Source: Candidatus Firestoneibacteriota bacterium (GTDB taxonomy: Bacteria > Oederibacteriota > D2-FULL-39-29 > JBDRBU01). Taken from it: 32,501 nt of DNA. The notes under the pieces are model-generated. The model saw only the letters and a program-made list of their open reading frames with translations, did not search any database and was not told where the DNA came from. How positions within the stretch are numbered: position 1 is the stretch's first letter; the number at the start of each line of letters is the position of its first letter. Below are positions 5,842 to 29,248 of the stretch, one piece after another. The stretch lies in the NCBI GenBank assembly GCA_043822305.1, contig JBDRBU010000007.1, positions 1 to 32,501 of the forward strand, in the 5' to 3' direction. A program made the translations under genes and the position numbers.

Positions 5842-5887
5842 AAATTTTTTCTAATAAAATTAAATCTTTAATTAAAAAGGAGGGTAA

Positions 5888-6886: not shown

Positions 6887-6906
6887 ATAAATGAGGGAGC
6901 CACCTA

Positions 6907-6948
6907 AAATGAGGGACAGACACCTATTAATAGGCGCTGTCCCCATTT
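6907..6948. repeat. Long imperfect palindrome (REP-like or terminator-like) between the porin gene and fdhE
   Basis: AAATGAGGGACAGACACCTATT-AATAGGCGCTGTCCCCATTT; preceded by a partial direct copy AAATGAGGGAGCCACCTA (6889-6906). Confidence 0.6.
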
Positions 6949-6958
6949 ATACATTTAT

Positions 6959-7792: not shown

Positions 7793-7870
7793 TAATTATA
7801 TGCTAAAAATAGTTTACTTATGGGATGAAAATTGATAAAATATTTATGAAACTTTAATTTTTTTGGGTGG

Positions 7871-7893
7871 CGTTATGCATTTTTTGCATAACG
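7871..7893. promoter_or_regulatory. ModE-type operator
   Basis: Perfect 9-bp inverted repeat CGTTATGCA-N5-TGCATAACG (CGTTAT-N11-ATAACG) ending 15 bp before the ATG of a ModE-like gene; possible TTGATA-17-TAATTT promoter at 7832-7860. Confidence 0.75.
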
Positions 7894-7908
7894 GAAAAGG
7901 AAAACAAT

Positions 7909-8244
7909 ATGAAAATTAAAGCAAAGGTTTGGCTTGAAAAAGACGGAAAACTTGTTTTTGGATTGGGAAAGCAACGAATCCTGGAAGCTGTTGCTGAAAC
8001 CAATTCTATAAATAAAGCGGCAAAAAAATTAAATATGTCATATAGACATACATGGAGTTATATCCATTCTGCTGAAAAAAGATTAGGTAATCTTTTACTT
8101 TTAAAAGTAAGAGGAGGCAAGGAAGGTGGCGGGGCTGTTTTAACGGATTATGCGAAAGAATTGCTTAAAAAATTTGAAAAAGTTGAAAAGAAAGTAATGG
8201 TTTTTACAGATAAATGTTATAAGGAGACTTTTAAGGAAAAATAA
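7909..8244 (+). CDS. modE: ModE-family regulator, N-terminal winged-helix domain only
   Basis: KVWLE...FGLGKQRILEAV...SINKAAKKLNMSYRHTW...RGGKEGGGAVLT; ATG at 7909 preferred to GTG 7867; no TOBE domains. Confidence 0.88.
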   Translation: MKIKAKVWLEKDGKLVFGLGKQRILEAVAETNSINKAAKKLNMSYRHTWSYIHSAEKRLGNLLLLKVRGGKEGGGAVLTDYAKELLKKFEKVEKKVMVFTDKCYKETFKEK

Positions 8245-9012
8245 ATGGAAGAAATAAAAGCAATCAGAATAAATAACGGGATTAAAGAAAATATTAAGGA
8301 GTTTGTTGCGGAAGAAGTCCCCTTTACAATTAATACCGCTAAAATGGAATTTGTTACACTTCTATGTTCTCCGATAAATCTTGATGATCTAATAAGGGGT
8401 TTTCTTTTTACGAGTGGATTAATAAAAGATGTTAAAGATATAAAAAAGATAACAATAGACGAAGAAAGATGGATGGCAGAAGTTGACCTGTCAATATCCA
8501 TAAAAGAAAAGCAGATGACATTTAAAAGACTTTATACTTCCGGATGCGGTAGAGGTGTACTTTTTTATAATACTTTGGATATGCTTCATAGAACAAAGTT
8601 AAAGTCGGATTTTAAAATTAATAGCTTTCAGATTAACAAATTTATACAGGAATTTCGGAAAAAATCAGAAGTATTTTTAAAAACAGGCTGCGTGCATGCT
8701 GCGGCAATTGCAGATTTAAAAGAAATCCTAATTTTCAGGGAAGATATAGGAAGGCATAATGCCGTAGATAAAGTCATAGGTAGTGTGTTGGCCAATAATA
8801 TTTCTTTTAAAGATAAGGTTTTACTTTCCACCGGGAGAATTTCTTCGGAGATAATATTTAAAGTTCAGAAGTGCAAGATACCCGTGATTGTGTCTAAGAG
8901 CGCCCCTACAAACCAGGCAGTTAAACTAGCAAAGGATCTAAATATTACTCTTGTAGGTTTTGCAAGGGGAAACAGAATTAATATTTACAGCAATGAAGAG
9001 AGGATAATTTGA
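8245..9012 (+). CDS. fdhD: Formate dehydrogenase sulfurtransferase FdhD
   Basis: GFLFTSG, TSGCG, EDIGRHNAVDK, STGRISSE, SAPT, TLVGFARG. Confidence 0.95.
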   Translation: MEEIKAIRINNGIKENIKEFVAEEVPFTINTAKMEFVTLLCSPINLDDLIRGFLFTSGLIKDVKDIKKITIDEERWMAEVDLSISIKEKQMTFKRLYTSGCGRGVLFYNTLDMLHRTKLKSDFKINSFQINKFIQEFRKKSEVFLKTGCVHAAAIADLKEILIFREDIGRHNAVDKVIGSVLANNISFKDKVLLSTGRISSEIIFKVQKCKIPVIVSKSAPTNQAVKLAKDLNITLVGFARGNRINIYSNEERII

Positions 9013-9023
9013 AAGAAGGTTGC

Positions 9024-9848
9024 ATGTTTAAAAAAGTAATACTGTTTGTTTTTGTGTTGACGATATTGATAATATCCGTGATAGCAGAGGAAAATAAGAC
9101 GGTAATACTTGCCACCACAACGAGTGTGCAGGATACCGGCTTACTGGATGTTTTAATGGAAAGCTTTGAAAATGAGACAGGATATACAGTAAAACCTATT
9201 GCTGTTGGTACCGGGCAGGCATTAAAACTCGGGATGAACGGTGAGGTGGATATTGTTTGGGTGCATAGCCCGGATGATGAGAAGAAATTTATTGAAGAAG
9301 GTTACGGAATAAACCGCACGACTTTCATGCATAATGATTTTGTCGTTTTGGGACCGGCAAGCGACCCGGCAGGTTTGAAGAATGCAAAGAGCGTAGTAGA
9401 AGGATTTAAAAATATTTTTCAAAAGAATGCATTATTCATCTCAAGAGGTGACCAGTCTGGAACCCATAAAAAGGAATTGAAAATCTGGAAACTGGCAGAA
9501 GTTATGCCAAACAAGGAAAAGTATAATGAAACAGGACAGGGTATGGCCGCGACATTAAGGGTGGCTGACGAGAAACAGTCGTATTGTTTAGCGGACCGTT
9601 CTTCGTATTTGTCTTTGAAAAAGAATATTAGCCTGGTTATATTATTTGAAGGGGACAAGGAACTTTTAAATTACTACAGTATTATTCTGGTTAACCCTCA
9701 AAAATTTCCAAAAGTCAATGTTAAGGGAGCGGAAGATTTCTTTGATTTCCTTCTTTCCGGAAAAACAAAAGAAGTTGTCGAAAATTTTGGGAAGAAAAAG
9801 TTCGGACAACAGCTGTTCTTCTACGATTACAAGGAGAAGGATAAATAA
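9024..9848 (+). CDS. tupA: Tungstate ABC transporter substrate-binding protein
   Basis: ATTTSVQDTGLL (TTTS motif), AVGTGQAL, VH, FISRGDQSGTH; signal peptide; start could be TTG 9009. Confidence 0.92.
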   Translation: MFKKVILFVFVLTILIISVIAEENKTVILATTTSVQDTGLLDVLMESFENETGYTVKPIAVGTGQALKLGMNGEVDIVWVHSPDDEKKFIEEGYGINRTTFMHNDFVVLGPASDPAGLKNAKSVVEGFKNIFQKNALFISRGDQSGTHKKELKIWKLAEVMPNKEKYNETGQGMAATLRVADEKQSYCLADRSSYLSLKKNISLVILFEGDKELLNYYSIILVNPQKFPKVNVKGAEDFFDFLLSGKTKEVVENFGKKKFGQQLFFYDYKEKDK

Positions 9849-10553
9849 ATGAATTTCATTTTAGACGGAATCAAAAAAGCAATCGAATTGATAGTATTTT
9901 TAGATAAGGATATCCTGAATGTTCTTAAGATTTCTTTGCTAGTATCCTTTTCTGCAACGGTTATCGCCGTTCTGGTTGGAGTACCTTTAGGAGCTGTTAT
10001 TGCCGTAAAGAAGTTTCCGTTTAAAAAGATTGTCATTACGTTAATTAACACGGGAATGGGCTTGCCTCCGGTCGTTGTCGGTTTGGTGGTGAGCCTTTTT
10101 CTGTTTCGCAACGGCCCTTTGGGCAGCTTGCAGTGGCTATATACGGTTCAAGGAATGGTTTTAGCCCAGATAATTATTGCCCTGCCCATAATTATGGGTT
10201 TAACTTTAGTTGCTTTTCAAAGCGTCGATAAAAAAATGTATTTTCAGATTTTGGCTTTGGGTGCGAGTACTTCACAGGCTATTTATCTTCTGTTAAAAGA
10301 GATACGTCTTTCGGTGATAGCTTCTGTTATTGCGGGTTTTGGAAGTATAATTTCGGAAGTTGGAGCGGTAATGATGGTCGGTGGCAATATTAAAGGGCAG
10401 ACAAGAGTTTTAACCACAGCTATAGTGCTTGAGACAAATAAAGGAAATTTCGATATTGCTATTGCTTTGGGATTAATACTTTTAATTATGAGTTTTATCG
10501 TTAATCTTGCTTTAACATTTATCCAGCAGAGGAAAAAGATTGATTATGATTAA
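9849..10553 (+). CDS. tupB: Tungstate ABC transporter permease
   Basis: NTGMGLPPVVVGL, SEVGAVMMVGGNIKGQTRVLTTAIVLET. Confidence 0.92.
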   Translation: MNFILDGIKKAIELIVFLDKDILNVLKISLLVSFSATVIAVLVGVPLGAVIAVKKFPFKKIVITLINTGMGLPPVVVGLVVSLFLFRNGPLGSLQWLYTVQGMVLAQIIIALPIIMGLTLVAFQSVDKKMYFQILALGASTSQAIYLLLKEIRLSVIASVIAGFGSIISEVGAVMMVGGNIKGQTRVLTTAIVLETNKGNFDIAIALGLILLIMSFIVNLALTFIQQRKKIDYD

Positions 10554-11604
10554 GATAAATAAGTTAAGATTATCATATAAAAATAATTTTACTTTAAACA
10601 TTAACAGGTTGACTATAAAAGAAGGGGAAATATTTTCAATAATCGGGCCGAATGGTGCCGGAAAAACCACTCTTTTAAATGTGTTAAATCTACTTGAAAA
10701 GCCACAGCAGGGGCAAATAAAAATATTCAATAAAAATATACTGGAACAAAAAAATGCATTGTCTTTCAGGAGACGTATTGCACATGTGTTTTCAAGGCCG
10801 TATTTGTTTAATAATACGGTTTATAAAAATGTTTCAGTGCCTTTAAGTCTGCGCAGAGAAAAATATGAAACAAGGGTGGATGAAATTTTAAGATTGTTTA
10901 AAATATTTGATTTAAAAAATGAAAATGCCCTGACACTTTCTCAGGGACAGATGCACAGGGTTTCTCTTGCCCGTGCTTTTGTGAGCAATCCTGAGCTGAT
11001 ATTGATGGATGAGCCATTTATAAGTCTGGAAAAACCCTATAAAGAAAGTTTAATGGTGGAAATCAGGCAGATTATAAAAAAGAGAAAAATTACAGCTTTG
11101 TTTGTTAGTCAGGAACAGGATGAGGTGTTACGATTGGCTGACAGAATAGCTGTGATGAAAGAAGGGAAAATACTGGAAATCGGTACACCACACCAGATAT
11201 TCACGAAACCCGCCAAAAAAGAAGTGGCTGATTTTATTGGGATTGAGACTGTTGCAGAAGGTATAATTTATAAAAAACAGGACAATCTTTGCAGTGTGCG
11301 CGTGAAGAATAAGGTAATAGAAGCCATATCCGAATATAATGTTATGGATACGGTATTTGTGTTAATTCGTCCTGAGGATGTTGTGTTTTCAAAACATAAA
11401 GAAAAAACAAGTGCAAGGAATTCGTTTAAAGCAAAAATTACAAATATTGAGCCGTACGGATTAGAGTATAAAATAACTTTTAATTGCGGTTTTAACATGC
11501 TGGCTTTTATCACTAAACAGTCTATAGACGAACTTGGATTAAAGAAAAAAAAGAAAGTTTATATATCTTTTAAAGCCACCGCAGTCCATTTAATAAAAAG
11601 GTGA
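10546..11604 (+). CDS. tupC: Tungstate ABC transporter ATPase with C-terminal TOBE domains
   Basis: GPNGAGKTT, LMDEPF, IRPEDV, TSARN, FKATAV. Confidence 0.88.
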   Translation: MIKINKLRLSYKNNFTLNINRLTIKEGEIFSIIGPNGAGKTTLLNVLNLLEKPQQGQIKIFNKNILEQKNALSFRRRIAHVFSRPYLFNNTVYKNVSVPLSLRREKYETRVDEILRLFKIFDLKNENALTLSQGQMHRVSLARAFVSNPELILMDEPFISLEKPYKESLMVEIRQIIKKRKITALFVSQEQDEVLRLADRIAVMKEGKILEIGTPHQIFTKPAKKEVADFIGIETVAEGIIYKKQDNLCSVRVKNKVIEAISEYNVMDTVFVLIRPEDVVFSKHKEKTSARNSFKAKITNIEPYGLEYKITFNCGFNMLAFITKQSIDELGLKKKKKVYISFKATAVHLIKR

Positions 11605-11633
11605 AAAAGCAATTTCAAAAGGAAGGGGTAAAA

Positions 11634-12083
11634 ATGGAAGGGAAAATTTTCTCGATAAATTTAAGCAAATCAAAAGGAGTCTCTAAATTATCGGTTAACG
11701 AGGCGAAACTGGTGGAAAATTTTGGTTTTGAAAATGATGTACATGCCGGGACCGATTTGAGGCAGGTGAGCTTGCTTTCAATAGAGAGCATAAGAAAACA
11801 GAAAGAATGCAAGAAAGTGAAAAAAACCGGAATGGTTTTAAAACCGGGTGATTTTGCCGAAAATATTACAACCGAGGGAATGGATCTTTCAAAATTAAAA
11901 ATCGGGTATGAATTAAAAATAGGAGAAAATATACTTTTAGAGGTAACTAAAATTGGGAAGGAATGCCAGAGGTACTGTTCTATATATTACAAGACAGGAG
12001 ACTGCATAATGCCGAGGGAAGGAATATTTGTAAAAGTTGTTAAAGGCGGAATCGTTAAAAAGGGAGATAAAATCCATCTCTAA
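11634..12083 (+). CDS. MOSC-domain protein (Moco-sulfurase C-terminal-like)
   Basis: DVHAG...RQVSLLS...PGDFAENITT...IGKEC...C...GDCIMPREGIF. Confidence 0.9.
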   Translation: MEGKIFSINLSKSKGVSKLSVNEAKLVENFGFENDVHAGTDLRQVSLLSIESIRKQKECKKVKKTGMVLKPGDFAENITTEGMDLSKLKIGYELKIGENILLEVTKIGKECQRYCSIYYKTGDCIMPREGIFVKVVKGGIVKKGDKIHL

Positions 12084-12179
12084 TGGTGATGGATTACTCC
12101 TCTTTTATCAGTCCGTACCCGCCTAAGTCGGGCTTATTGTATTGTCTATAAAATATTTAAAATATTTAAAAAATTATCC

Positions 12180-12208
12180 TTGATAATCCTGCAAAAAAGT
12201 GATATATT
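12180..12208 (+). promoter_or_regulatory. Putative sigma70 promoter
   Basis: TTGATA-17 bp-TATATT with an extended -10 TG, in an AT-rich intergenic region. Confidence 0.5.
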
Positions 12209-12210
12209 AA

Positions 12211-12549
12211 AATTGTCTAACCTATGTAGAAGATGTAGTTGAAGTTGTTAAAGCACATTATAGGGAAAAACTTGATTTTGAACTATTTGAAATTAAATGT
12301 TATTTAATATTGGGATTTACTAATGAAGGCAAACCATTACATTTTGTATTAGGAAATATAGAAGAAGAAAAAGTTTTGATTATTACAATGTATAGACCTA
12401 AAATAGAGAAGTGGATAGATTTTTTGAGAAGGAAGATTTGTGTTCAATGTGGCGAAAAATATTTTGATGCAGAAGTATCACGACAAATGGAACATATTGT
12501 TTTAAAAGGGAGAAAAACTTTCAACCTTAATTACTGTGCCTGTTTGTGA
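12211..12549 (+). pseudogene. Decayed toxin-antitoxin-like pair: DUF4258-like C-terminus fused to the second half of a YgiT-type zinc finger
   Basis: YLILGFTNEGKPLHFV...VLIITMYRP...KW joined in frame to CVQCGEKYFDAEV; no good start or RBS; only one CxxC of the zinc finger is present. Confidence 0.65.
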
Positions 12550-12661
12550 ATTTGTGACGATATGAACCATAATTCCGAAGAAAAGATAAATAGAGATTAA
12601 ATTTGTAAAATTCGTTTCAGAAAAGAAATAAAAGGTCTCCATAGTGGACCGAGGAGGAAAA

Positions 12662-12823
12662 ATGTTTGGATTAGGAGTGCCAGAATTGGCAATAATTTTA
12701 GTTATATGTTTTTTACTTTTTGGGGCTAAAAAACTTCCTGAGATTGGTAAGTCAATTGGAAAAACAATTAAGGAATTTAAGAATTCAATAAAAGAGATAA
12801 GCAAAGAAGAAGAGAAAAAGTAA
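12662..12823 (+). CDS. tatA: Twin-arginine translocase TatA/E (53 aa, not in the ORF track)
   Basis: GAGGAGG RBS; MFGLGVPELAIILVICFLLFGAKKLPEIGKSIGKTIKEFKNSIKEISKEEEKK. Confidence 0.95.
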   Translation: MFGLGVPELAIILVICFLLFGAKKLPEIGKSIGKTIKEFKNSIKEISKEEEKK

Positions 12824-12845
12824 TCTAGCCAAGAACAATAGAAAA

Positions 12846-12948
12846 TGAATCTCCCCCGCCATAAATGGCGGGGTATCTTCTCTGCAGGGAAAATATATTA
12901 TTATTGTGCCAATTCATCCCCGTCTCAAGAGACGGGGTATTCTTGGCA
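12846..12948. mobile_element. Putative non-autonomous IS200/IS605-like miniature element (two related hairpins)
   Basis: CCCCGCCAT-AA-ATGGCGGGG (12854-12873) and CCCCGTCTC-AA-GAGACGGGG (12918-12937), both followed by TAT, separated by an AT-rich spacer. Confidence 0.55.
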
Positions 12949-12960
12949 CTCCCAGATAAA

Positions 12961-13944
12961 ATGCTCATAGATGCTTATGGTAGAAAAATAGATTATCTAC
13001 GTATATCTGTTACAGATAGATGCAACTTAAGATGCATTTACTGTATGACTGCTAAAGGGATCCTTCATAAACCCCAGAAAGAGATACTTTTATTTGAAGA
13101 AATTTTTAAAATAGTAAGTGTTTTTGCAAAACTTGGTATTAAAAAAATAAGAATTACTGGAGGCGAACCTTTAGTAAGAAAAGATTTACATTTACTTATA
13201 AAGAAATTAAGAAGTATTGAAAAGTTAAAAGAAATCTGTCTTACTACTAATGGAATTTATCTTAGTGATTATGCATATCCGCTTAAGATTGCAGGACTTG
13301 ATAGAGTGAATATTAGTTTGGATACTTTAGTATTAGAGAAATTTAAAAATATAACAAGGGATGGAAATTTAGAAAGAGTGCTTAAAGGAATAGAGTCTGC
13401 ATTTTTAGTAGGTCTAACTCCTGTGAAAATAAATATAGTGCTCATAAAGAGATTTAATGATGATGAGATACTGAATTTTGCGAAATTAACAAAAGATAAG
13501 CCAATACATGTTAGATTCATTGAGTATATGCCTACAAATTTAAGTTATATTCCATGGAAGAATAGTTTCTTTAGTGCAATTAAAGCAAAAAATATTTGCG
13601 ATAGATTAGGAAAACTTAATCCTGTTGAAAATGCATCAGATGGGGTTGCAAAAGTTTTCAGGATAGAAGATTTTTGTGGAACTATAGGTTTTATTTCTGC
13701 AATAACTGAACCTTTTTGTTCTTCTTGTAATAAGTTAAGGTTAACAGCAGATGGAAGGTTAAAGAGTTGTTTGTATTCATCTAAGATGATAGAGTTAAAA
13801 GGGATCCTTAAGAAAGGGACAGAACATGATTTGACTAAGTTAATTAAGGAAGTAGTTATATTAAAACTAAAAGCACATAGTTTATTAAAATCGCCAGTTA
13901 TTTCTGAAATTGAGAGTTTTAGTATGTGTCAAATAGGTGGATAA
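12961..13944 (+). CDS. moaA: GTP 3',8-cyclase MoaA
   Basis: DAYGRKIDYLRISVTDRCNLRCIYCM, TGGEPL, FCSSCNKLR, C-terminal IGG; ATG 12961 matches the usual family start. Confidence 0.96.
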   Translation: MLIDAYGRKIDYLRISVTDRCNLRCIYCMTAKGILHKPQKEILLFEEIFKIVSVFAKLGIKKIRITGGEPLVRKDLHLLIKKLRSIEKLKEICLTTNGIYLSDYAYPLKIAGLDRVNISLDTLVLEKFKNITRDGNLERVLKGIESAFLVGLTPVKINIVLIKRFNDDEILNFAKLTKDKPIHVRFIEYMPTNLSYIPWKNSFFSAIKAKNICDRLGKLNPVENASDGVAKVFRIEDFCGTIGFISAITEPFCSSCNKLRLTADGRLKSCLYSSKMIELKGILKKGTEHDLTKLIKEVVILKLKAHSLLKSPVISEIESFSMCQIGG

Positions 13945-15513: not shown

Positions 15514-18077
15514 TTCAATGCCCCCCAATTATCACCAGTTTTAATATCTATTTTTAAAGGTACTTTTAATTTTACTGCATTTTCCATTGTTTCTTTTATG
15601 ATTTCTTTTAACGAATTTAATTCTTTTAAGACACATTCAAAAATTAATTCATCATGTACCTGTAAAATCATTCTAGAAGATAAATTTTCTTTCTTAATCG
15701 TCTTATGAATATTTATCATGGCTAATTTTATAATATCTGATGCCGAGCCTTGAATAGGCATATTTATGGCCTCTCTTTCTGCAAATCCTCTGACCATCTT
15801 ATTTTTACTATTAATCTCCGGGATATATCTTCTTCTATTTAGTATAGTTTCAACATAACCTAATTTTCTTGCTTTTTCAATGGCACCAATCATATACATT
15901 TTTACACCCGGATATTTTAAAAAATAATTTTCAATATATTGTTTGGCTATATCTTTACTTATTTTAAGTTCTTTTGCCAGTCCAAAAGGTGTCATTCCAT
16001 ATATTATTCCAAAATTTACGGTCTTGGCCACCCTTCGTTTTTCACTATCCACCATTTCTTTTGAGATGCTAAATATTTCCATGGCTGTTCTTGTGTGAAT
16101 ATCTTCGTCGTTATTAAAAGCATTTATTAAATTTTTATCAAGACTAAAATGAGCTAATACTCTTAAATCTATTTGAGAGTAGTCAGCAGATAAGATTTTC
16201 CATCCAGTGTCTTCTGGAACAAATGCTTTTCTTATTTCCCGGCCAATTTCAGTTTTAATTGGGATATTCTGTAAATTAGGATGGACACTGCTTAACCTAC
16301 CAGTTGATGTTCCTGTTTGATTGAAAGAAGTATGAATTCTATTGGTCTTTTTATCAACTAACTGTGGGAGGACATCTATATAAGTATTTTTTAATTTTGT
16401 TAATTGTCGGTAATCTAATAAAACAACGGCTATATCTTCTGTTTTTGAAAGTTCTTCTAAAACTTCCACATCAGTTGATGGTCCTGTTTTTGTCTTTTTT
16501 ATGACAGGTAGTTTTAATTTCTCAAACAAAATTTTGCTTAACTGTCTGGGAGAATTAATATTAAATTCTTCTTTGGCCAGGTTATATATATTTTTTATTA
16601 TTTCATTTAACTTTACATTTATTGAATTTGAAAGTTCTTTTAAAAAATCAATATCAATTTTTATCCCGGTTGTTTCCATTTTATACAAAACTTCAATAAG
16701 AGGCATTTCTACATTCTCAAAAAGAAATGTTAAATTTTGATTATCTAATTCTTTTTGTAAAATGTTTTTTAAGTCATTGTTAAAACAAACTATTTCTTTT
16801 TCATTTATATTTTGTGATAAATAAGCGGAAACCAAGGTTAAAGCGCCGTAATTTTCTTTATTTGAATCAATTAGATAAGAAGCGAGCCTAGTCTCAAACT
16901 TTATGCCTGAAATATTTAGTTTATGTTTTGACAAAATGTGCATCATATTTTTAAAATTATGCCCTATTTTAGATATATTTTTATCCGCTAAAATATTTTT
17001 CATCCGAGTAAAATTAAAAGAGTAATAAGTTGATGGTTTTAAACTTAATAATATTTCATTTTCGTTTACATCAATACTAATTTCTTTTATATTGTTTAAT
17101 TCTGTCAAAAATTTCTTAAAAGAGTCTTCATTTTCAATCAGTATCTTTTCACATTTAATAATTTCTTGTTTAAATAACCCTTCATCTCCAGGTTTGGAAA
17201 TTAACTTATTAAAGTCCTCTATTAATCTTTTAAACTCTAATTCTGAAAACAACTTTAATACTTTCTCTGTGTTGGGCTCTTTAAATTCCAAATTAGATAG
17301 TTTCACCTTAAGAGGAGGTGAAACTAAAGTTGCAATCTTTTTACTTAAAATTGCTATTTCTTTATGCTCTTGCAATCTGTTTTTAAGTTTTTCATTTTTT
17401 ATTTTGTTAATATTATTAAAAATAGAATCTAAATCTTTGAATTCTTTGAGCAAACTTGATGCAGTTTTTTCTCCAATACCTTTAACTCCAGGGATGTTGT
17501 CAGCCGTATCTCCGGCCAATCCAAGGAAATCCACAATTTGACATGGTTTAACACCATATTTTTCTATTACTTTTTGCTCATTATAAATAAACTCTTCTTT
17601 GTAGACACTCATAACTTCAACATTTTCATTTATTAGTTGGAGCATATCTTTATCCCCGGTTAGTATTGTTACTTTTAAGTTATTTTCTTCACCTTTTTTT
17701 GTAAAATATGCAATTAGATCGTCTCCTTCATACCCCTCAATTTCATATGTTGGAATGTTAAAACAGTTAAGCATATCTTTTACAATTGGAATCTGTTGAA
17801 TTAAATCTTCGGGAGGTGGCTCTCTTTTTATTTTATAATCTTTGAATTCTTTATGTCTAAAAGTAGGACCTTTTGTATCGAAAGCAAAAGCAAGATAATC
17901 TGGTTTTATTTCCTTTAAAATCTTTAGAAGTAAACGAGCCAAGCCAAAAACGGCATTAGTCGGAATGCCTTTAGATGTGGATAGATTTTTTATAGCATAA
18001 TAGCATCTATACAGGTAAGAGTTTCCATCAACAAGAAGTAATCTTTTAATGTCTATTTCTCTTCTTTTGACTGACAC
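15510..18077 (-). CDS. polA: DNA polymerase I (start uncertain, between 18050 and 18077)
   Basis: LVDGNSY, GDTADNIPGVKGIGEKTA, TGRLSS...PNLQNIP, ADYSQIDLR, AKTVNFGIIYG, QVHDEL. Confidence 0.97.
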   Translation of the reverse strand: MSVKRREIDIKRLLLVDGNSYLYRCYYAIKNLSTSKGIPTNAVFGLARLLLKILKEIKPDYLAFAFDTKGPTFRHKEFKDYKIKREPPPEDLIQQIPIVKDMLNCFNIPTYEIEGYEGDDLIAYFTKKGEENNLKVTILTGDKDMLQLINENVEVMSVYKEEFIYNEQKVIEKYGVKPCQIVDFLGLAGDTADNIPGVKGIGEKTASSLLKEFKDLDSIFNNINKIKNEKLKNRLQEHKEIAILSKKIATLVSPPLKVKLSNLEFKEPNTEKVLKLFSELEFKRLIEDFNKLISKPGDEGLFKQEIIKCEKILIENEDSFKKFLTELNNIKEISIDVNENEILLSLKPSTYYSFNFTRMKNILADKNISKIGHNFKNMMHILSKHKLNISGIKFETRLASYLIDSNKENYGALTLVSAYLSQNINEKEIVCFNNDLKNILQKELDNQNLTFLFENVEMPLIEVLYKMETTGIKIDIDFLKELSNSINVKLNEIIKNIYNLAKEEFNINSPRQLSKILFEKLKLPVIKKTKTGPSTDVEVLEELSKTEDIAVVLLDYRQLTKLKNTYIDVLPQLVDKKTNRIHTSFNQTGTSTGRLSSVHPNLQNIPIKTEIGREIRKAFVPEDTGWKILSADYSQIDLRVLAHFSLDKNLINAFNNDEDIHTRTAMEIFSISKEMVDSEKRRVAKTVNFGIIYGMTPFGLAKELKISKDIAKQYIENYFLKYPGVKMYMIGAIEKARKLGYVETILNRRRYIPEINSKNKMVRGFAEREAINMPIQGSASDIIKLAMINIHKTIKKENLSSRMILQVHDELIFECVLKELNSLKEIIKETMENAVKLKVPLKIDIKTGDNWGALK

Positions 18078-18466
18078 TCTATATCATGTTTTGTAAAAGG
18101 TAACGTTTTTAATCTCTTTTTGTTGATGAGTTTACCACATATTTCACAAGTACCATATGTACCTTTTTCTATTTTTTCTAAAGCAATGTCTATTTCTTCT
18201 AAAGATCTTTTTTCTGTATCGCTCAAATTATGCAAAAACTCAGCATCATATGTATCACCGGCTAAATCTATTGAATCTTTTACTTCTGTAGGATCAATTT
18301 TCTTTCCATTGGCAATATTTTTTGCTAACTCTTCTAATAAATCCTTTTTTTGGAACAAAAGTAATCCCTTAAAATATTTTAGATCTTTAGAAATTAACTT
18401 TTTTGTTTTTACCCCTGATTTTTGTTTCTTTGTTTTTTTAATCTTTTTATATTTCTTCTTCTTCAT
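18053..18466 (-). CDS. dksA: DksA/TraR C4-type zinc finger family protein
   Basis: DSIDLA (DxxDxA), ALEKIEKGTYGTCEICG...RL..LP...HDIEC; GAGGGG RBS before ATG 18466. Confidence 0.85.
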   Translation of the reverse strand: MKKKKYKKIKKTKKQKSGVKTKKLISKDLKYFKGLLLFQKKDLLEELAKNIANGKKIDPTEVKDSIDLAGDTYDAEFLHNLSDTEKRSLEEIDIALEKIEKGTYGTCEICGKLINKKRLKTLPFTKHDIECQSKEEK

Positions 18467-18587
18467 TTTCGTTCCCCTCAGCATGGCAATCCTCAAAATA
18501 AAGACACTTTTTACAGCAGCCTTCCATGAGGGTGCCAGATTCACTACAAATTTCATAATTTGAACATTCTTCGCAACAGTAAAGCAA
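18447..18587 (-). CDS. Small Cys-rich acidic protein (46 aa), not in the ORF track
   Basis: GGGAGG RBS 6 nt before a TTG; MLYCCEECSNYEICSESGTLMEGCCKKCLYFEDCHAEGNENEEEEI; fills the gap between the decarboxylase gene and dksA. Confidence 0.72.
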   Translation of the reverse strand: MLYCCEECSNYEICSESGTLMEGCCKKCLYFEDCHAEGNENEEEEI

Positions 18588-18644: not shown

Positions 18645-20186
18645 TTACTGTCGTTTCAATTCAATTATTTTATTAAAATCAAAGGTTTCTTGTGCAAGTC
18701 CATTTACTTCATGCCTTGTTTCACAAACTACTTTAATAGTTTGCAAACTTTTATCGTCTTGACCATTTATTATATTACCTAATTCTTTTAGTAAATGCAA
18801 GTAATTATATGCTTCTTTTGTAATTCTTTCTCCGGGAACAAGTAAAGGAATTCCAGGTGGATATGGAGATACTATCTCTGCACAAATTAGCCCTATTGAA
18901 TCTTTAAATGATACTTTTTTTGTTACAGAAAATGATGCTTCTCTTGGAGTTAAAACAACCTCTGAAGCAAACTCTGGAAAACCAATATCTGGAAGCGCCT
19001 TAACAATATTCTCGTTTATTTTGAAATTTTTCTTAATATCTTTTAAGGCCCTGGTTAATTTATATATATCATTTTTAGTATTACCCAGACTGACAATAGC
19101 GAGCAAATTTGATGGAGTAGCGAACTCTACCTGTATTCCATATTTTTTGTTTAGAAGCCGTGATACTTCATAACCTGTATTTCCAATGTTCCTTGTATCT
19201 ATAGTTAATTTTGTCACATCTAATCCAAATATGCCTTCTTTTCCAGTTATTTCTTTTCCAAAACATCTAAGGCCCAGATTGTTTATATGTTTTCTTGTTT
19301 CTTCGGCTAAATCAATAACTCTTGAAAGGATTTCACTTCCAGATGTTGCCATTTGCATTCTGGCTACATCAAGTGAAGCCAGTAATATATATGAAGGTGA
19401 AGTTGTATGTAATAACTGTAATATTCGTTTTAATTTTAATATATCTATTGTCCTTCTGGCGTGAAGCATAGAGGCTTGAGTCATTCCAGAGATAATTTTA
19501 TGCGTACTTTGAACACATATATCTGCTCCGCCTTCCATGGCCGAAGTTGGTAAATCTGGATGGAATTTCAAATGAGGTCCATGGGCTTCATCAACCAGCA
19601 AAATTTTCTTATACTGGTGTGCTATTCTTACTATTTCTCTTATATCCGTAGTTATCCCATTGTATGTTGGATTTGTTATAAGTATAGCTTTTACATCAGG
19701 ATGCTCTTTAATCTTTTCTTCTATCTGTGTCGGGGTTACATTGCATATTATTCCCAGATCTTTATCTACTTTTGGATATACATATATTGGTATTGCTCCA
19801 CTTATTATAACTCCGGCGATAACTGATTTGTGGGCATTCCTGGGAATGATAATTTTATCTCCGGGTAAACATACTGAGAGTATCATGGCATGATTACCTA
19901 TTGTTGTTCCATTAACAAGGAAAAACGAGTAATCCGTACCATATGCTTCGGCGGCTAATTTTTGGGCATCTTTAATTACAGTTTTAGGGTCCTGAAGAGA
20001 ATCAACCTCTTCCAGTAATGTTAAATCTATATCAAATATCCTCGCTCCTACAAAATCTCGAAATCTTTTAGAAATCCCATCTCCATGTTTATGCCCTGGA
20101 GTATGAAAAGATATCTTTTTCTTTTTTGCATAGTTAACCACTGCATCAAAAAGAGGAGTTTTTAATTGCCGCTCGTAATAGTCCAT
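18645..20186 (-). CDS. PLP-dependent Orn/Lys/Arg decarboxylase (fold type I, probably arginine decarboxylase)
   Basis: FHTPGHK, LVNGTT, RNAHKS, VDEAHG, QSTHK, TTSPSY, PYPPGIP; next to speDE. Confidence 0.92.
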   Translation of the reverse strand: MDYYERQLKTPLFDAVVNYAKKKKISFHTPGHKHGDGISKRFRDFVGARIFDIDLTLLEEVDSLQDPKTVIKDAQKLAAEAYGTDYSFFLVNGTTIGNHAMILSVCLPGDKIIIPRNAHKSVIAGVIISGAIPIYVYPKVDKDLGIICNVTPTQIEEKIKEHPDVKAILITNPTYNGITTDIREIVRIAHQYKKILLVDEAHGPHLKFHPDLPTSAMEGGADICVQSTHKIISGMTQASMLHARRTIDILKLKRILQLLHTTSPSYILLASLDVARMQMATSGSEILSRVIDLAEETRKHINNLGLRCFGKEITGKEGIFGLDVTKLTIDTRNIGNTGYEVSRLLNKKYGIQVEFATPSNLLAIVSLGNTKNDIYKLTRALKDIKKNFKINENIVKALPDIGFPEFASEVVLTPREASFSVTKKVSFKDSIGLICAEIVSPYPPGIPLLVPGERITKEAYNYLHLLKELGNIINGQDDKSLQTIKVVCETRHEVNGLAQETFDFNKIIELKRQ

Positions 20187-22280: not shown

Positions 22281-24128
22281 TTAAAATGTAATGTTTGCTC
22301 CTCCATTAAATGTTCTGCCTGGCATTGGGTATCCATCTCTAAGTTGATAGGGTACATTTTCAATATTTTCTATCCCCAAATTAATCTGTAAATAATCATT
22401 GATTTGCAAAGTTAACCTTACATCTGTTTTTATAAAATTGGGGAGCGATCTTGTATTGCTTGTATTAATAAATCTTTTATCATAATATTCAGAATCTATG
22501 CTTAATTTTTGACCAAAAATGTTATACTCCATTCCCAAATTAACTTTATTTCTTGGTCTATATATTAACTCCTTATCCAAACTTTCATCTTTAGTGAATA
22601 ACCATGTATGATTTACATATCCTGTTAAATTGTTGAAAGGAACTACTTTTAATTCAGTTTCAAGACCATATGTTGCTACTTTGCTAACATTTGATGGTAT
22701 CCATTTAGAAGATGAATCTAATGGATCTATTTGGGCCCACTGAATCATATCAGTTAGATCATTTCTAAAATATGTTTCTTTTACAAGAAGAAAATCTGCA
22801 AGATCATAACTTACTCCTATATCATACGAGAGGGACTTTTCTGGTTTCACATTTGGATTGCCTTCTGCCCATCCTTCATCTGGCCAGTATAAGTTAGAAA
22901 AAGTTGGTGCTCTAAAACTAGTTCCTATTGAACCTTTTATTTGAATATTATCTTCTATATTATAAATTAATGCTGCTAAAGGGTTAAAACTATCTCCGTA
23001 GACAGAATGGTTATCATATCTAACTGCTGCTGTAAAAATCCATGAGCCAAGCAAATCTAAAGTATCCTGTGCATATACTGATTTTATTGTAGCATTTTTA
23101 TTTCCTAGAGCACTTTGTTCTAAGACATCATAACGACACCTTCCACCTAATGTTAGAATATTTATTCCACCTAAATCATAACTATATTGTGTCTCAAAAT
23201 CCAAATTTTTCTCGTCACTAAGTGTATCAGTGAAAGAATAAAAGTTTAAAATATTTCTTGCTCCGTATAAATTAAACTTAATTACTGATTCATCGTCTAA
23301 CCCAATCTTAAAATTCAAAGAAGAATATAATTTTTCGTTTTTTTGTTTATCAGTTAAAGATGGCCAAGAAATACTTCCAGGAGCACCAAGGTCTGATTTA
23401 AATCCACCAAAGTTTAATTTTAAGTTACTTAATTCTGAAAAATTGTAGTTAATTGTTCCGTTTAAATTATAGGAATCATATTTACTATTCTCTCTTTCTC
23501 CGTCAGAATGTTCATATGAGCCCGTTAAATTCAGTAACAAATTATCAAATTTATTTTCAAAAGAAAGTTTATAATCCTGCGTATTAAATGTTCCATAATC
23601 ACCTGAAAAGGTTATCTCTGGTTTATCAACTTTGCTCTTGGTAATAATGTTTACAACTCCACCAACAGCATTTGCTCCATAAAGTGAAGATGCAGGACCT
23701 CTAAGGACTTCAATTCTTTCTATATTATCTAAATTTAACAATGATAGATTTACATCTCCCACATAACTGCTGTTTAATGAAACGCCATCAAGCAAAATCA
23801 ATGTTCCTTCAGCAGATACTCCCCTAAGAAGTATGGATTGGGCTGTCCCTAATGTCCCCAATTTGCCTATATCAACACTGATTAGATTAGAAATTACTTC
23901 TCCTACATTTTTTGAATCACTCGTTTTAATTTTTTCCTTATCAACTACACTTATATTTGCTGGTACTTCTCTTAACAATTTTTCCACCCTTGAACCAGTG
24001 ACAACGATTTCATCTAATTGAAAGACATCTTTTATCTCAACTGGACAAGTAGTGCCACATTCCTGCTTATTCTCTTCAGCAAAAATATTCAAAGATACTA
24101 AAGATAAAACCAACATAATTCTTAACAT
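22281..24128 (-). CDS. btuB: TonB-dependent cobalamin receptor (BtuB-like)
   Basis: DEIVVTGSR TonB box, IERIEVLRGPASSLYGANAVGGVVNIIT plug, FRAPTF, GNPNVKPE, PGRTF, terminal Phe; B12 operon context. Confidence 0.88.
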   Translation of the reverse strand: MLRIMLVLSLVSLNIFAEENKQECGTTCPVEIKDVFQLDEIVVTGSRVEKLLREVPANISVVDKEKIKTSDSKNVGEVISNLISVDIGKLGTLGTAQSILLRGVSAEGTLILLDGVSLNSSYVGDVNLSLLNLDNIERIEVLRGPASSLYGANAVGGVVNIITKSKVDKPEITFSGDYGTFNTQDYKLSFENKFDNLLLNLTGSYEHSDGERENSKYDSYNLNGTINYNFSELSNLKLNFGGFKSDLGAPGSISWPSLTDKQKNEKLYSSLNFKIGLDDESVIKFNLYGARNILNFYSFTDTLSDEKNLDFETQYSYDLGGINILTLGGRCRYDVLEQSALGNKNATIKSVYAQDTLDLLGSWIFTAAVRYDNHSVYGDSFNPLAALIYNIEDNIQIKGSIGTSFRAPTFSNLYWPDEGWAEGNPNVKPEKSLSYDIGVSYDLADFLLVKETYFRNDLTDMIQWAQIDPLDSSSKWIPSNVSKVATYGLETELKVVPFNNLTGYVNHTWLFTKDESLDKELIYRPRNKVNLGMEYNIFGQKLSIDSEYYDKRFINTSNTRSLPNFIKTDVRLTLQINDYLQINLGIENIENVPYQLRDGYPMPGRTFNGGANITF

Positions 24129-24158
24129 TTTTTCCTCCTTTTATTTTTATTCCCTGTT

Positions 24159-24191
24159 ATTCCCCCTTAGAAAAGGGGGTTAGGGGGTTGT
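24159..24191 (+). repeat. Family-2 repeat, copy 1
   Basis: ATTCCCCCTTAGAAAAGGGGGTTAGGGGGTTGT. Confidence 0.8.
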
Positions 24192-24237
24192 AAATCCCTG
24201 TTTTGTGTTTCCATTTGATCTACGCTCCATCACCTCC

Positions 24238-24969
24238 TTATAATTTTAAGGATAAAATAATTAAAACACAAATTTCAATGATTTCTACGGTAAAGCCAAA
24301 AATATCTCCCGTTATGCCACCTATTTTTTTTACAAAATATAAAGCAATTAATATTGAGATTACTGTCGTAATTAAAAATGCAAAAATTCCATTTAATCCA
24401 ACTAATAATGAAATTAGAAATGAAAATCCAATAGCCATAATGAGTTGTTTAAATGGAACTTTCTTGCAAAATATGGATCCTAACCCATTATTTTTAGCCG
24501 GAGGAGCAAAAAACATTTGCAGAATTATTCCGGTTCTACTTAAAACAGGCATTAAAATAAAAGCAATATTTAAATTTGAAATATTAAAATTAACAAGTAG
24601 AAAAACTTTTAATATTAAAATTATAAATAACCAGACGGCTCCCATGGCTCCCAGATGACTATCATCCATTATTTTGAAAATTTCTTCTTTTGTTTTCCCT
24701 CCGTAAAGTCCATCAATAGTATCAGCGAAGCCATCTAAGTGCATACATCCAGTTAGAAGTAGATAAACGGCGAAGGTGAGAAGGAGGGAAGCAAAAGAGG
24801 GTAAAAATAATGACAGAATAAAATTTGTCCCGACTAAGATCAATCCTAAGATTAAACCGGCTAAAGGGAAAAACACGACAGAGTTGACCAAATCGGATTC
24901 TTTAATTTCTCTCTGTATCTTTACTGGTATTCTTGTTAAAAATTGTAAAGCAATTAAGAAGTTTCTCAT
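24238..24969 (-). CDS. cobS: Adenosylcobinamide-GDP ribazoletransferase (cobamide synthase)
   Basis: QFLTRIP, TGCMHLDGFADTIDG, IMDDSHLGAMG, GGITGDIFG. Confidence 0.95.
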   Translation of the reverse strand: MRNFLIALQFLTRIPVKIQREIKESDLVNSVVFFPLAGLILGLILVGTNFILSLFLPSFASLLLTFAVYLLLTGCMHLDGFADTIDGLYGGKTKEEIFKIMDDSHLGAMGAVWLFIILILKVFLLVNFNISNLNIAFILMPVLSRTGIILQMFFAPPAKNNGLGSIFCKKVPFKQLIMAIGFSFLISLLVGLNGIFAFLITTVISILIALYFVKKIGGITGDIFGFTVEIIEICVLIILSLKL

Positions 24970-25487
24970 TTTAATCTCATGGGTAATCCGGCGGCCATAA
25001 AATAAACCTCATCGGCATACTTGGCTAATATTTGATTTGATTTACCTTGTCTATCTCTAAATAATCTGGCTAATTTATTTCTGGGAACAATTCCCAGACC
25101 AACTTCATTTGAAATAATTATCACTGATGATTCACAATTTTTACAAGATTTAGCCATTTCTTTTATTTTGTCTTCTATTGAATTTTCATTATATTTTTTC
25201 ATCATCCAGTTGTTAAGAAGGAGTGTTAAACAGTCTAAAAGGATTACCTTGCCTTTTTTATTTTCTTTTTTAAAGACGGAGATAACATTTAAAGGTTCTT
25301 CTATCACTTTCCATATCTTGCTTCTATTTTCTTTATGCTTTTTAACCCTGTCTTTCATTTCTTTATCAAGTGGAATAGTTGTGGCAATATAGACAAACTC
25401 TTTGCCTAATTTTTGGGCTAATTTTTCACTAAAAGAAGTTTTTCCGCTTCTGGCTCCACCAGTTATAAGAATAAATTTTTTTTTCAT
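24966..25487 (-). CDS. cobU: Adenosylcobinamide kinase/adenosylcobinamide-phosphate guanylyltransferase
   Basis: GGARSGKT, YIAT, LDCLT, SNEVGLGIVP, RLFRD. Confidence 0.96.
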   Translation of the reverse strand: MKKKFILITGGARSGKTSFSEKLAQKLGKEFVYIATTIPLDKEMKDRVKKHKENRSKIWKVIEEPLNVISVFKKENKKGKVILLDCLTLLLNNWMMKKYNENSIEDKIKEMAKSCKNCESSVIIISNEVGLGIVPRNKLARLFRDRQGKSNQILAKYADEVYFMAAGLPMRLK

Positions 25488-26533
25488 TTTATTTTTTCAT
25501 CCACTCCTGCTGATTCAAAAGTAGCCATTTCATTTAATATCTTTACACCAGCATCTATTATATTTATGGCTAAGGCCGCCCCGGTTCCTTCTCCTAATCT
25601 TAAATCTAAATTAAGAATTGGTTTTAATCCCAGATAATCCAAAGCAATTTTATGACCTCTTTCAACGGATACATGAGAAGCAAACAAATATTCTCTGACT
25701 TTAGGGGAAATATTTACAGCAATTAAAGCCGCCGCTCCAGAAATAAATCCATCAATAACCACAGGTATTTTTCTCATGGCCCCGCCAAGTATTACTCCAG
25801 TTAACCCACCTATCTCAAATCCTCCAACCTTAGATAAAACATCAAGAGCATCCTTAGGATTTGGTTTATTTAGTTTTATTCCCTTTTTTATGACTTTAAT
25901 TTTATTTTCGAAAGTTTTATCATCTACCCCCGTCCCTCTTCCAGTTACAATCTCAACTTTTTGTTTGGTAAATACTGAGGTTATGGCACTACTTGGAGTT
26001 GTGTTGCCTATGCCCATATCACCTGTGCCGACTATATCTATATTCTTTTCGCTTAAGACAATATCTAGACCCGCTTCAATAGATTTTATTGCTTCTTCTT
26101 TTGTCATGGCTGGACCTTTTGCAAAATTTTTTGTTCCATAATTGATTTTTTTTATTATTAAGTCTGGATGTTTTTCTAAATCACTGGCCACGCCCAGATC
26201 AACTACTATTACTTTTGCTCCAATATGCCTGGCTAAAACATTTATACCTGCTCCGCCTTTTAAAAAATTATAAACCATTTGAGGGGTTACTTCTTTTGGA
26301 TAGGCCGAAACTTTTTCTTCAACTACTCCATGGTCACCGGCCATGGTAATTATAACTTTATTTTTTAAGGTTGGATTCTTTTTACCTGTAATGGCTACTA
26401 CATATTTGGCCATCTCTTCTAACCGGCCCAGACTTCCAAGTGGTTTTGTAAGATTATCTAACCTCTTTTGTGTTTCCTTAAAAGATTCCTTATCTATCCC
26501 TTCTATTTCTACATCATACTTACCTATTTTCAT
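25484..26533 (-). CDS. cobT: Nicotinate-nucleotide dimethylbenzimidazole phosphoribosyltransferase
   Basis: LTKPLGSLGRLE, GDHGV, GDMGIGNTT, DGFIS, LRLGEGTGA. Confidence 0.97.
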   Translation of the reverse strand: MKIGKYDVEIEGIDKESFKETQKRLDNLTKPLGSLGRLEEMAKYVVAITGKKNPTLKNKVIITMAGDHGVVEEKVSAYPKEVTPQMVYNFLKGGAGINVLARHIGAKVIVVDLGVASDLEKHPDLIIKKINYGTKNFAKGPAMTKEEAIKSIEAGLDIVLSEKNIDIVGTGDMGIGNTTPSSAITSVFTKQKVEIVTGRGTGVDDKTFENKIKVIKKGIKLNKPNPKDALDVLSKVGGFEIGGLTGVILGGAMRKIPVVIDGFISGAAALIAVNISPKVREYLFASHVSVERGHKIALDYLGLKPILNLDLRLGEGTGAALAINIIDAGVKILNEMATFESAGVDEKIK

Positions 26534-26559
26534 ATTAATTTCCTCCTTTAATTTCCTTA

Positions 26560-26592
26560 ATTCCCCCTTAAAAAAGGGGGTTAGGGGGTTGT
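26560..26592 (+). repeat. Family-2 repeat, copy 2
   Basis: ATTCCCCCTTAAAAAAGGGGGTTAGGGGGTTGT; one mismatch to copy 1; supplies the btuD stop codon. Confidence 0.8.
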
Positions 26593-27405
26593 CTTTATTG
26601 TTGTCTTTATTTTTGACTGCCTTTCTCTTGCTTCTTCTGGAACTATTAATATAAAAGGTTTAGAAGAAATTGGATTTTTTTCTACAACCACAATTGTCTT
26701 ATAAACCTCCTCAATGATTTGATATTTTAAAACCTCCTCGGGAGTTCCCATTGAATAAACCCTGCCTTTATTTATAAGAACTAACCTCTGACAATATTCA
26801 CTGGCTAAATTAAGGTCGTGCAGGACCATGATGACTGTAAGTTTAAATTCTTTATTTAACTTTTTTACAAGGTCTAAGATTTTTATTTGATGTGTTATAT
26901 CTAAATGTGTTGTTGGCTCATCCAATAAAAGCAATTTTGGTTCTTGAGCCAAAGCCCGGGCCACAAGGACAGTTTGTCTTTCTCCGCTACTTATTTCTGC
27001 TATAAGTCTATTTTTAAGTTTAAAGGTGTCTGTTAGCCTCATACATCTTTTAGCAATATCCAGATCGTTTTTTGTTTCTAAAAATTGAAATCTTTCATAG
27101 TGAGGAATCCTCCCCAGAAGTACAAATTCCTCTACGGTGATGTATCCTATTTCAGAATCTTGAGAAATTACCGCTATTTTCTTAGCCAGATCCTTAAGGC
27201 CCATCTGCCAGATATCTTTTCCTTCAAATAAAATATTCCCTTTCTTTGGCTTAATCACTTTAGTTATCGCTTTTAGAAGAGTTGTTTTCCCTGACCCATT
27301 TGGACCTATTATGCCTACAAGTTCTCCTGCAGCTACTTTAAGATTAATATCTAAAAGATTAAATTTTAAGTCATAACCACAATTTAAGTTTTCTATCTTA
27401 AGCAC
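26581..27405 (-). CDS. btuD: Cobalamin ABC transporter ATPase
   Basis: GPNGSGKTT, LLLDEPTTHLD, HDLNLA; context. Confidence 0.88.
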   Translation of the reverse strand: MLKIENLNCGYDLKFNLLDINLKVAAGELVGIIGPNGSGKTTLLKAITKVIKPKKGNILFEGKDIWQMGLKDLAKKIAVISQDSEIGYITVEEFVLLGRIPHYERFQFLETKNDLDIAKRCMRLTDTFKLKNRLIAEISSGERQTVLVARALAQEPKLLLLDEPTTHLDITHQIKILDLVKKLNKEFKLTVIMVLHDLNLASEYCQRLVLINKGRVYSMGTPEEVLKYQIIEEVYKTIVVVEKNPISSKPFILIVPEEARERQSKIKTTIKTTP

Positions 27406-28421
27406 TATTTTCCTCCCAGAATAACTTGTTTCTTGCTTAATGTATAAATAAAAATACTTCCTCCTAATATCCCTGTGATGACGCCGACAGGTAATTCTAA
27501 AGGTGATATAACTATTCTAGATAATGTATCGCAAAATATTAAAAAACATGCCCCGCTTAAAAAGGCACTAATCAAAAGAATTCGATGGTCACTTCCAACG
27601 AACATACGGACAAAATGAGGAACAACCAGACCGACAAATCCAATAATACCAGCAACCGCCACACTACAACCAGTAAGTAAAGAGGAGAGTATAAAAAGTA
27701 ACCGCTTTGTTCTTTCTATATTTATGCCCAGATGCAACGCTTCTTCTTCACCAAGTAGAAAAGCATTTAAATCCTTCCAAAATAAACAAGATATGAACAA
27801 CCCTAGAACAGATATTAAAAGTGTTAGTTTTATTAAAACCCAGTTTGGTTCTTCTAATGAACCCATTATCCAGAAGATAATTCCATGAAGGTCCTCAGTC
27901 CGAGAAACAGCCATAATGAGCATAATTAAAGAAGAAGAAATAAAACTTATCATCACACCCGTTAAAAGAAGTTCTTGAATCTTTAAAATACCCTTTTTTA
28001 TACTTAAGGAATAAACCAATAAAATAACTAAGATTGCTCCAGCCCAACCAAAAAGAGGTAAGGTTACAGCACCAAAAGTTTGATATAATCTAAATATAAT
28101 ATTTAAACATACACCTAAGGCTGCTCCTCCAGAAATGCCCAGTGTGTATGGTTCTACAAGAGGATTACGAAACATACCCTGTAAAATTACTCCAGATAAA
28201 GCCAATGCTCCGCCTACGGCAAAACCCAGAATAATGCGCGGTAATCGGATATCAAAAATAATACTATATTCGGTAGAGCCTTTACCTTCAAGGATAACTT
28301 TTAGAATCTTCTTTAAAGATATTCCAACTGAACCTGTGCATATGGAGAAAAGAGAGATACAAAGTAACAAACCGCACAAAACCAATATCCAACAGATCCA
28401 TCTAATAATTTTCTTTCTCAT
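27405..28421 (-). CDS. btuC: Cobalamin ABC transporter permease (FecCD family)
   Basis: IRLPRII, RNPLVEP, GIIGFVGLVVPH, ELPVG. Confidence 0.9.
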   Translation of the reverse strand: MRKKIIRWICWILVLCGLLLCISLFSICTGSVGISLKKILKVILEGKGSTEYSIIFDIRLPRIILGFAVGGALALSGVILQGMFRNPLVEPYTLGISGGAALGVCLNIIFRLYQTFGAVTLPLFGWAGAILVILLVYSLSIKKGILKIQELLLTGVMISFISSSLIMLIMAVSRTEDLHGIIFWIMGSLEEPNWVLIKLTLLISVLGLFISCLFWKDLNAFLLGEEEALHLGINIERTKRLLFILSSLLTGCSVAVAGIIGFVGLVVPHFVRMFVGSDHRILLISAFLSGACFLIFCDTLSRIVISPLELPVGVITGILGGSIFIYTLSKKQVILGGK

Positions 28422-29248
28422 TTTATTACTCCAGGATGTAAAATATTGACAATTTCCTCTAATGTTTTCACGAAACTCACTGGCGTGGGGCTGGTAAGTT
28501 CGTCAGTAGATATAATATAAATTCGGTTGTTCTCTGTCGCACTTAAAGTTTTATATTTCTCCCAGACCTTTTTTTCTTCTTCCCCGGCAATGCCCATGGC
28601 CGTAATAATTATTACATCAGGATTTGCGGATAAAACCTGTTCTCTTGAATATATACCTTCCTTTGCGTCTTTAGCTATATTTATTCCACCAGCAATTTCA
28701 ATATAGTCATTAATAAAACAACTACCTGTTGCGACAAACAAAGGTTTTGCTCCTACCTGGACAAGAACCTTTGGTTTTCCTAAAATTTCAACCTTTTTTT
28801 TAATGAATTTTACATTGTCTTCAGCATTCTTTACAATCTTTTCAGATTCTTTTTCTTTACCAACAAGTCTTCCTAATTCTAAAAACTGTTTGCACAGATC
28901 ACTAAAATTTTCTGGCATAGACAAAGTAATCACTTTTATTTCTAATCTTTTTAATTTCTCTTTTGCCTTAGGATTAGTTAAAGATGTGGCTAAGACCAAG
29001 TCCGGTTTAAGATTAAATATTTTTTCTATGTTTATATCTATAACTGTACCAATCTTCTCTTTTTTTTCTGCTCCAGCAGGGCTAAGGCAGTATATAGTAT
29101 TGGCTATCAATTTATCCTGCACTTCTAAAAGATATAACCCCTTGGTTATAGAAGGCCCTAAAGAGATTATTCTTTGAGGGAGGATGTCGGCTACACAAAT
29201 ACCACATAAAATTATTAAAAATACTGATAATATTATATTTTTTTTCAT
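28418..29248 (-). CDS. btuF: Cobalamin-binding periplasmic protein
   Basis: RIISLGPSIT, EKIFNLKPDLV, AGGINI, NPDVII; signal peptide. Confidence 0.85.
   Translation of the reverse strand: MKKNIILSVFLIILCGICVADILPQRIISLGPSITKGLYLLEVQDKLIANTIYCLSPAGAEKKEKIGTVIDINIEKIFNLKPDLVLATSLTNPKAKEKLKRLEIKVITLSMPENFSDLCKQFLELGRLVGKEKESEKIVKNAEDNVKFIKKKVEILGKPKVLVQVGAKPLFVATGSCFINDYIEIAGGINIAKDAKEGIYSREQVLSANPDVIIITAMGIAGEEEKKVWEKYKTLSATENNRIYIISTDELTSPTPVSFVKTLEEIVNILHPGVIK

Follow-up and report, generated by a model that had tools for sequence, protein, structure and literature searches.

An eight-cysteine microprotein gene overlapping dksA in one order of uncultured bacteria: a possible metal-thiolate partner of DksA

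WhiB/Wbl proteins carry a [4Fe-4S] cluster and bind sigma factors. The spacing C-x2-C-x5-C is also found in endonuclease III, Cas4/AddB and SPASM domains. The WhiB [4Fe-4S] motif itself reads Cys-X14-22-Cys-X2-Cys-X5-Cys and includes C-x2-C-x5-C (PMC5462746). In mycobacteria, polycysteine leaderless sORFs act as attenuators, for which two consecutive cysteines can suffice (10.1101/834739). The transcription regulator DksA is characterized by a DxxDxA coiled-coil tip, and its Cys4 zinc finger is, according to PMC4010833, not essential to its function. DksA senses redox and zinc through its own cysteine site, and its zinc site is a known redox-tuned site (PMC11672702).

Here we examine a window of 32,501 nucleotides (the whole stretch of DNA analysed) in which a cysteine-rich microprotein gene overlaps the start of a dksA-like gene. 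Our search of the literature for dksA with an upstream cysteine-rich small protein found, at listing level, no dedicated DksA partner. To our knowledge, no dedicated small-protein partner encoded with DksA has been described.

The microprotein frame and its neighbours

The microprotein gene (18447..18587, minus strand) begins with a TTG at 18587-18585, ends with a TAA at 18449-18447 and encodes 46 amino acids, eight of them cysteines (17%). Its Shine-Dalgarno (SD) sequence, GGGAGG at 18599-18594 on the same strand, lies 6 nt 5' of the TTG. At the other end, the dksA ATG at 18466 creates a 20-nt overlap between the two frames. The window contains two instances of the codon pattern CCxxC-x5-C, and both belong to this frame: repeat 1 (18578-18546, minus strand; C4-C5-x2-C8-x2-Y-E-x-C14) and repeat 2 (18518-18486, minus strand; C24-C25-x2-C28-x2-[YF]-E-x-C34). 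One hundred shuffles of the window gave a mean of 0.04 occurrences, and none reached two. The original prediction had named the TTG start, the GGGAGG, both repeats and the 20-nt overlap, leaving the minus strand unstated, and had judged such regular spacing unlikely in non-coding AT-rich DNA. We confirmed each of these features.

On the minus strand the genes are ordered speD-like, speE-like, Orn/Lys/Arg decarboxylase (18645..20186), microprotein, dksA (18053..18466), polA and coaE. The decarboxylase (OKR_DC_1) and dksA were named by Pfam; speD-like, speE-like, polA and coaE were named by reading translations. After de-duplication, the genome set plus 17 metagenome loci left 18 distinct copies of the microprotein gene. 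All 18 lie between dksA and an upstream Orn/Lys/Arg decarboxylase gene, and in 17 the dksA ATG falls at nucleotide offset 121 of the microprotein. Since genomes of the order keep the decarboxylase-dksA-polA(-coaE) block together as far as their loci extend, and since the decarboxylase-dksA adjacency also exists elsewhere in the phylum without the microprotein gene, synteny of the microprotein is not independent evidence. A frame of this kind is missing upstream of dksA in all 18 loci examined from outside the order. Overlaps of at least 11 nt, found in 57/479 close gene pairs of the source genome, are ordinary there, and dksA overlaps polA too. The apparent start of polA is a GTG that has no clear SD and lies within dksA, so that the last 25 nt of dksA (18053-18077) are shared by both genes.

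The product of dksA (137 aa) scores above the cut-off of Pfam zf-dskA_traR and below the cut-offs of the NCBIfam DksA models. The DxxDxA tip is present as DSIDLA, with D64, D67 and A69 invariant in 11 aligned sequences. All 11 of these proteins have a Lys-rich N-terminal extension, just as the original prediction described for the DksA of the window. The Cys4 zinc finger is incomplete in the window DksA, where Asp replaces the third cysteine (CxxC-x17-DxxC). The same Asp is found at locus L054, and the other 15 full-length DksA copies have Cys4 (L042 is cut and was left out). By position, the replaced residue corresponds to C135 of E. coli DksA, which belongs to the redox-sensing pair (PMC11672702). 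dksA has an SD of its own (18479-18474 in the window) in 17/18 copies, with pairing of -7.7 to -12.0 kcal/mol; that of L054 is weaker, at -5.6 kcal/mol at best. Therefore, dksA need not depend on coupling. As a separate observation, RelA_SpoT (PF04607) was detected in 8/11 same-order relatives and not in the source genome (96.8% complete), which may reflect an assembly gap.

Other features of these loci were recorded along the way. The intergenic region that separates the decarboxylase from the microprotein contains imperfect direct repeats of ~60-90 nt in L008, L010 and L069, and those of L008 and L010 duplicate the last decarboxylase codons. In five loci of another family, f5, a very acidic protein of 120-138 aa is encoded directly before dksA, and behind the decarboxylase in those loci that extend so far (L018:1866-2264(-), L020:1866-2279(-), L022:1164-1523(+), L023:1955-2329(-), L024:1014-1403(+)); it has a conserved [LM][DE]EAGFH motif and no Pfam match. 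A sigma-70-like site with 11/12 matches stands 5' of speD in a scan that gave no more sites than shuffles. The flanks of the window (800-13944 and 22281-31511, translations read only) contain a formate-dehydrogenase-like operon with tungstate/molybdate uptake and cofactor genes, and a cobalamin uptake/salvage cluster; both look ordinary for an anaerobe.

Conservation, acidic tail and start codon

When 99 genomes of the phylum were searched with a profile built from 11 copies, 12 gave a match, namely 12/12 of the window's order and 0/87 others. Three remote homologue groups (P0023/P0026, P0025 and P0028/P0030-32; 41-51% identity) were found in Logan or ENA only. In 29 sequences, down to 41% identity, all eight cysteines and the 9-residue linker are fixed, Y11 is invariant, and both repeats read CCxxCxx[YF]ExC. 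Among 11 sequences 22/46 positions are invariant, and one His is conserved within the window's order. The core pN/pS is 0.131 across the 18 distinct copies, where synonymous sites are saturated, and 0.016-0.096 inside each of four closely related groups. Third codon positions carry most of the variation (variable columns 11/6/32 of 34 by codon position). The gene is under purifying selection. The original prediction took the frame to be a real protein-coding gene and proposed looking for homologues upstream of dksA with conserved cysteines and dN/dS below 1. Such homologues exist, with frame and cysteine pattern intact, and we consider it practically certain that the gene is real.

The original prediction had not recognised the family, and neither did the databases. 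Pfam and NCBIfam gave no match to the microprotein at E<=1 (11 members gave DUF4734 at E 7.7 only), PHROGs gave no family match (best E 1.9), PDB sequences gave none, and a single-sequence search of 5.8 billion proteins yielded no candidate. Some public sources annotate it as a hypothetical protein. We found no paper on this family in the literature, although small-protein catalogues in supplements could list it. Weak matches to a wider profile within the phylum were inspected at eight loci (those of G085 and G096 lie outside these), and none was a homologue. P0022, an insect repeat protein, and P0024 were rejected as repeat artefacts. The window microprotein had no match in phages, the A4 query found no relative in viral contigs, and L101, from such contigs, was dismissed as a chance match within another gene. 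The microprotein represents an undescribed small-protein family of narrow range.

The acidic tail (residues 36-46; 18450..18482, minus strand) has 6-9 acidic residues among its 10-11 in 18/18 copies, and acidic tails are kept in the three remote homologue groups. Its sequence is loosely conserved (pN/pS 0.63). The same bases encode the dksA SD and the first dksA codons, and the acidity might be a by-product of the SD and of ATG-AAG-AAG, which read Glu in the other frame. Codon usage argues otherwise. The Lys codons of dksA are AAG in 52/56 cases within the overlap versus 68/217 downstream, counts that overstate significance because the 18 copies are kin. ATG-AAG-AAG opens 15/18 dksA genes, whereas AAG-AAG follows in 2/69 SD-led MKK starts of the source genome, and therefore Glu is kept in the microprotein frame. 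In this genome AAG makes up 24% in KK runs and 40% in longer runs. The tail that the original prediction called acidic appears to be so by selection in its own frame.

A start AUG is normally favoured (PMC5622118). The 18 copies start with GTG (10) or TTG (8) and never with ATG, compared with ~16% non-ATG starts in the source genome by a crude call. On the tree of copies two GTG/TTG switches are needed, which is few, and no tip has ATG. This persistence suggests selection for low or regulated translation of the microprotein. A GGAG-containing site is present upstream in 18/18 copies (anti-SD pairing of -8.3 to -13.2 kcal/mol). In 13/18 copies 10 nt separate GGAG from the start codon, against 7 nt in the window; spacers of at least 10 nt are found in 84/451 ATG genes of the source genome.

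These starts could also serve a role in cis. The E. coli polyamine modulon is marked by UUG/GUG starts and by SD sites at a distance of 10 nt (PMC4405209), and an inefficient start of this kind might respond to polyamines and relay the signal to dksA by coupling. Either signature, start or distant SD, can be seen among the copies: all 18 starts are non-AUG, and the 10-nt spacer prevails outside the window copy. The upstream gene in all 18 copies is a polyamine-pathway decarboxylase, and in the window this gene is itself preceded by speD and speE. Set against this, the spacer of the window copy is short, dksA has its own SD, and the invariant positions go far beyond what a cis element needs. 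Many non-AUG genes also lie outside the polyamine modulon. We regard this role as unlikely.

Metal binding and a possible tie to DksA

Eight invariant cysteines in two equal repeats are most simply read as two metal sites, and on this pattern the microprotein very probably binds metal. Since C-x2-C-x5-C is part of the WhiB [4Fe-4S] motif and of the other proteins and domains named at the outset, Fe-S is as open as Zn. We also lean towards translational coupling of the microprotein to dksA, which the original prediction had proposed, and towards low expression.

Our best explanation, to which we give a probability of roughly 35%, is a low-abundance two-site metal-thiolate protein that acts on DksA as a metal or redox partner. 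The acidic microprotein would fold around two metal-thiolate sites (Zn or Fe-S) and would be made in low amounts together with DksA. Its tail would grip the basic N-terminal extension of DksA, a pairing suggested in the original prediction, and the microprotein could thereby report metal or redox status to this regulator. The estimate rests on the fixed overlap, on a tail selected to be acidic where DksA offers a basic extension, and on the metal/redox tuning of DksA. It is lowered by the gene block, which is conserved anyway, and by the independent SD of dksA. Two observations count against binding of the tail to DksA: overlaps are ordinary in the source genome, and in G012, a genome of the same class, the N-terminus of DksA is Lys-rich although dksA has no such gene upstream.

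G012 does encode a look-alike at another site (L082:1468-1614(-)), and its position is a further argument against a DksA partner. This 49-aa protein has the same double CCxxC-x5-C with a 14-residue linker and lacks the acidic tail. It is encoded directly after AsrA/AsrB-like (or HydB/HydG-like) genes instead of beside dksA, and was found in 1/99 genomes. When all 99 genomes were scanned for the DNA pattern, 24 genomes outside the order gave matches, mostly triplet repeats among the matches listed; eight loci were inspected, and among them the G012 look-alike was the one real case. Eight stretches in viral contigs are candidate matches to the G012 protein, which had no match in plasmids. In the Atlas, the microprotein (0.90) and the look-alike (0.93) share their top match, a 55-aa cluster of 61 members, commonest in Omnitrophota. 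The neighbours of the look-alike are this cluster and one of 114 members, both commonest in that group.

These data suit a small redox protein of anaerobes with Fe-S or Zn that works on its own, as an electron or cluster carrier or an O2 sensor, and merely resides in a housekeeping operon without acting directly on DksA. The company of the look-alike, the shared Atlas cluster and the strong net negative charge of the microprotein (-11 to -13 in the eight sequences counted) all fit such a carrier. A charge of this kind is ferredoxin-like. The microprotein nevertheless lacks the motif CxxCxxCxxxCP of 2[4Fe-4S] bacterial ferredoxins and has no Fer4 match. Little connects it to the look-alike in sequence (hhalign 84% over 14 columns; E 0.16 in a separate search), and such a carrier leaves the fixed dksA overlap and the weak start unexplained. 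We consider this carrier doubtful in itself, and nearly as likely as the DksA partner.

A more elaborate form of the DksA partner would be a dedicated cofactor, in which a tail-bound, two-site metal or Fe-S microprotein gates DksA by redox or zinc, and the invariant UUG/GUG start, inside a polyamine-synthesis operon, ties both proteins to polyamine levels. This combination is improbable; if true, the stringent response would have gained a new input at the protein level. Action of the microprotein on DksA in any form would mean that a global regulator has a new control point and that the Lys-rich DksA extensions have a job. Otherwise it would still represent an undescribed eight-cysteine architecture, presumably metal-binding, that is short enough to synthesise. 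The microprotein probably marks a single order of uncultured bacteria; its impact is limited by this narrow range and by hosts that have not been cultured.

Comparison with described cysteine-rich systems

Bacterial metallothioneins (SmtA/BmtA, MymT) resemble the microprotein in being small and cysteine-rich, with an easily missed reading frame and with aromatic and His residues. The original prediction read the microprotein as a metallothionein-like Zn/Cu or Fe-S-binding protein. A metallothionein-like Zn/Cu store or buffer would account for the cysteine content and for the His conserved within the order. Folding can depend on metal (PMC3323870), and the AlphaFold models, computed for the apo form, are weak (pLDDT 58 and 65.5; range given as 58-66), which would fit a protein of this kind. 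With these weak models neither Foldseek nor VIA-align produced a match, a result that says nothing on the fold. The metallothionein assignment does not hold up well otherwise. The microprotein has no profile match to these families, and no metal sensor or efflux gene is among its neighbours (decarboxylase, dksA, polA, coaE). The decarboxylase-microprotein gap, 12-267 nt long, contains no shared motif when compared by eye. The duplicated spacing is regular, and the weak start suits a low-abundance protein, not a store. We therefore think a storage role unlikely.

The polycysteine attenuators share with the microprotein a short reading frame, consecutive cysteines (two CC pairs in 29/29 sequences) and a position upstream of another gene. 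A cysteine-sensing leader peptide controlling dksA would have to tolerate several differences. The microprotein is SD-led and mid-operon, and in two copies the decarboxylase stop precedes it by only 12 and 19 nt (19 nt in L067). It is conserved like a folded protein, and the gene downstream does not belong to cysteine metabolism. An RNA structure hiding the dksA SD was rejected, because pairing is no higher than in synonymous shuffles (mean z 0.2, 18 copies), and so was a conserved RNA fold, with compensatory change in 0/10 consensus pairs. Such a leader is highly improbable. A frameshift fusion to DksA was likewise rejected: in 11/11 loci examined no stop interrupts the dksA frame over the length of the microprotein, but the pN/pS of that frame is 1.6. 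Synonymous shuffles keep it open in 75-93% of cases in 10 loci and in 23% in the window.

Like the microprotein, WhiB/Wbl proteins are small and linked to transcription, and the WhiB spacing is formally present in C5-x19-C25-x2-C28-x5-C34. The microprotein is about half the length of WhiB. It differs in having two repeats with eight cysteines instead of four, an acidic tail and a host that is not actinobacterial; no WhiB profile, Pfam, NCBIfam or PDB match was found, and fold searches on the weak models were empty.

The unnamed double-CCxxC-x5-C proteins, comprising the G012 look-alike and the Atlas clusters, have the same eight-cysteine layout and size. They differ from the microprotein in their 14-residue linker, their KWxRGE-type core, the missing acidic tail and their position after AsrAB-like genes. 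The shared top match in the Atlas may serve as a lead, not as proof of homology. The look-alike and its Atlas neighbours possibly form a larger undescribed family of their own.
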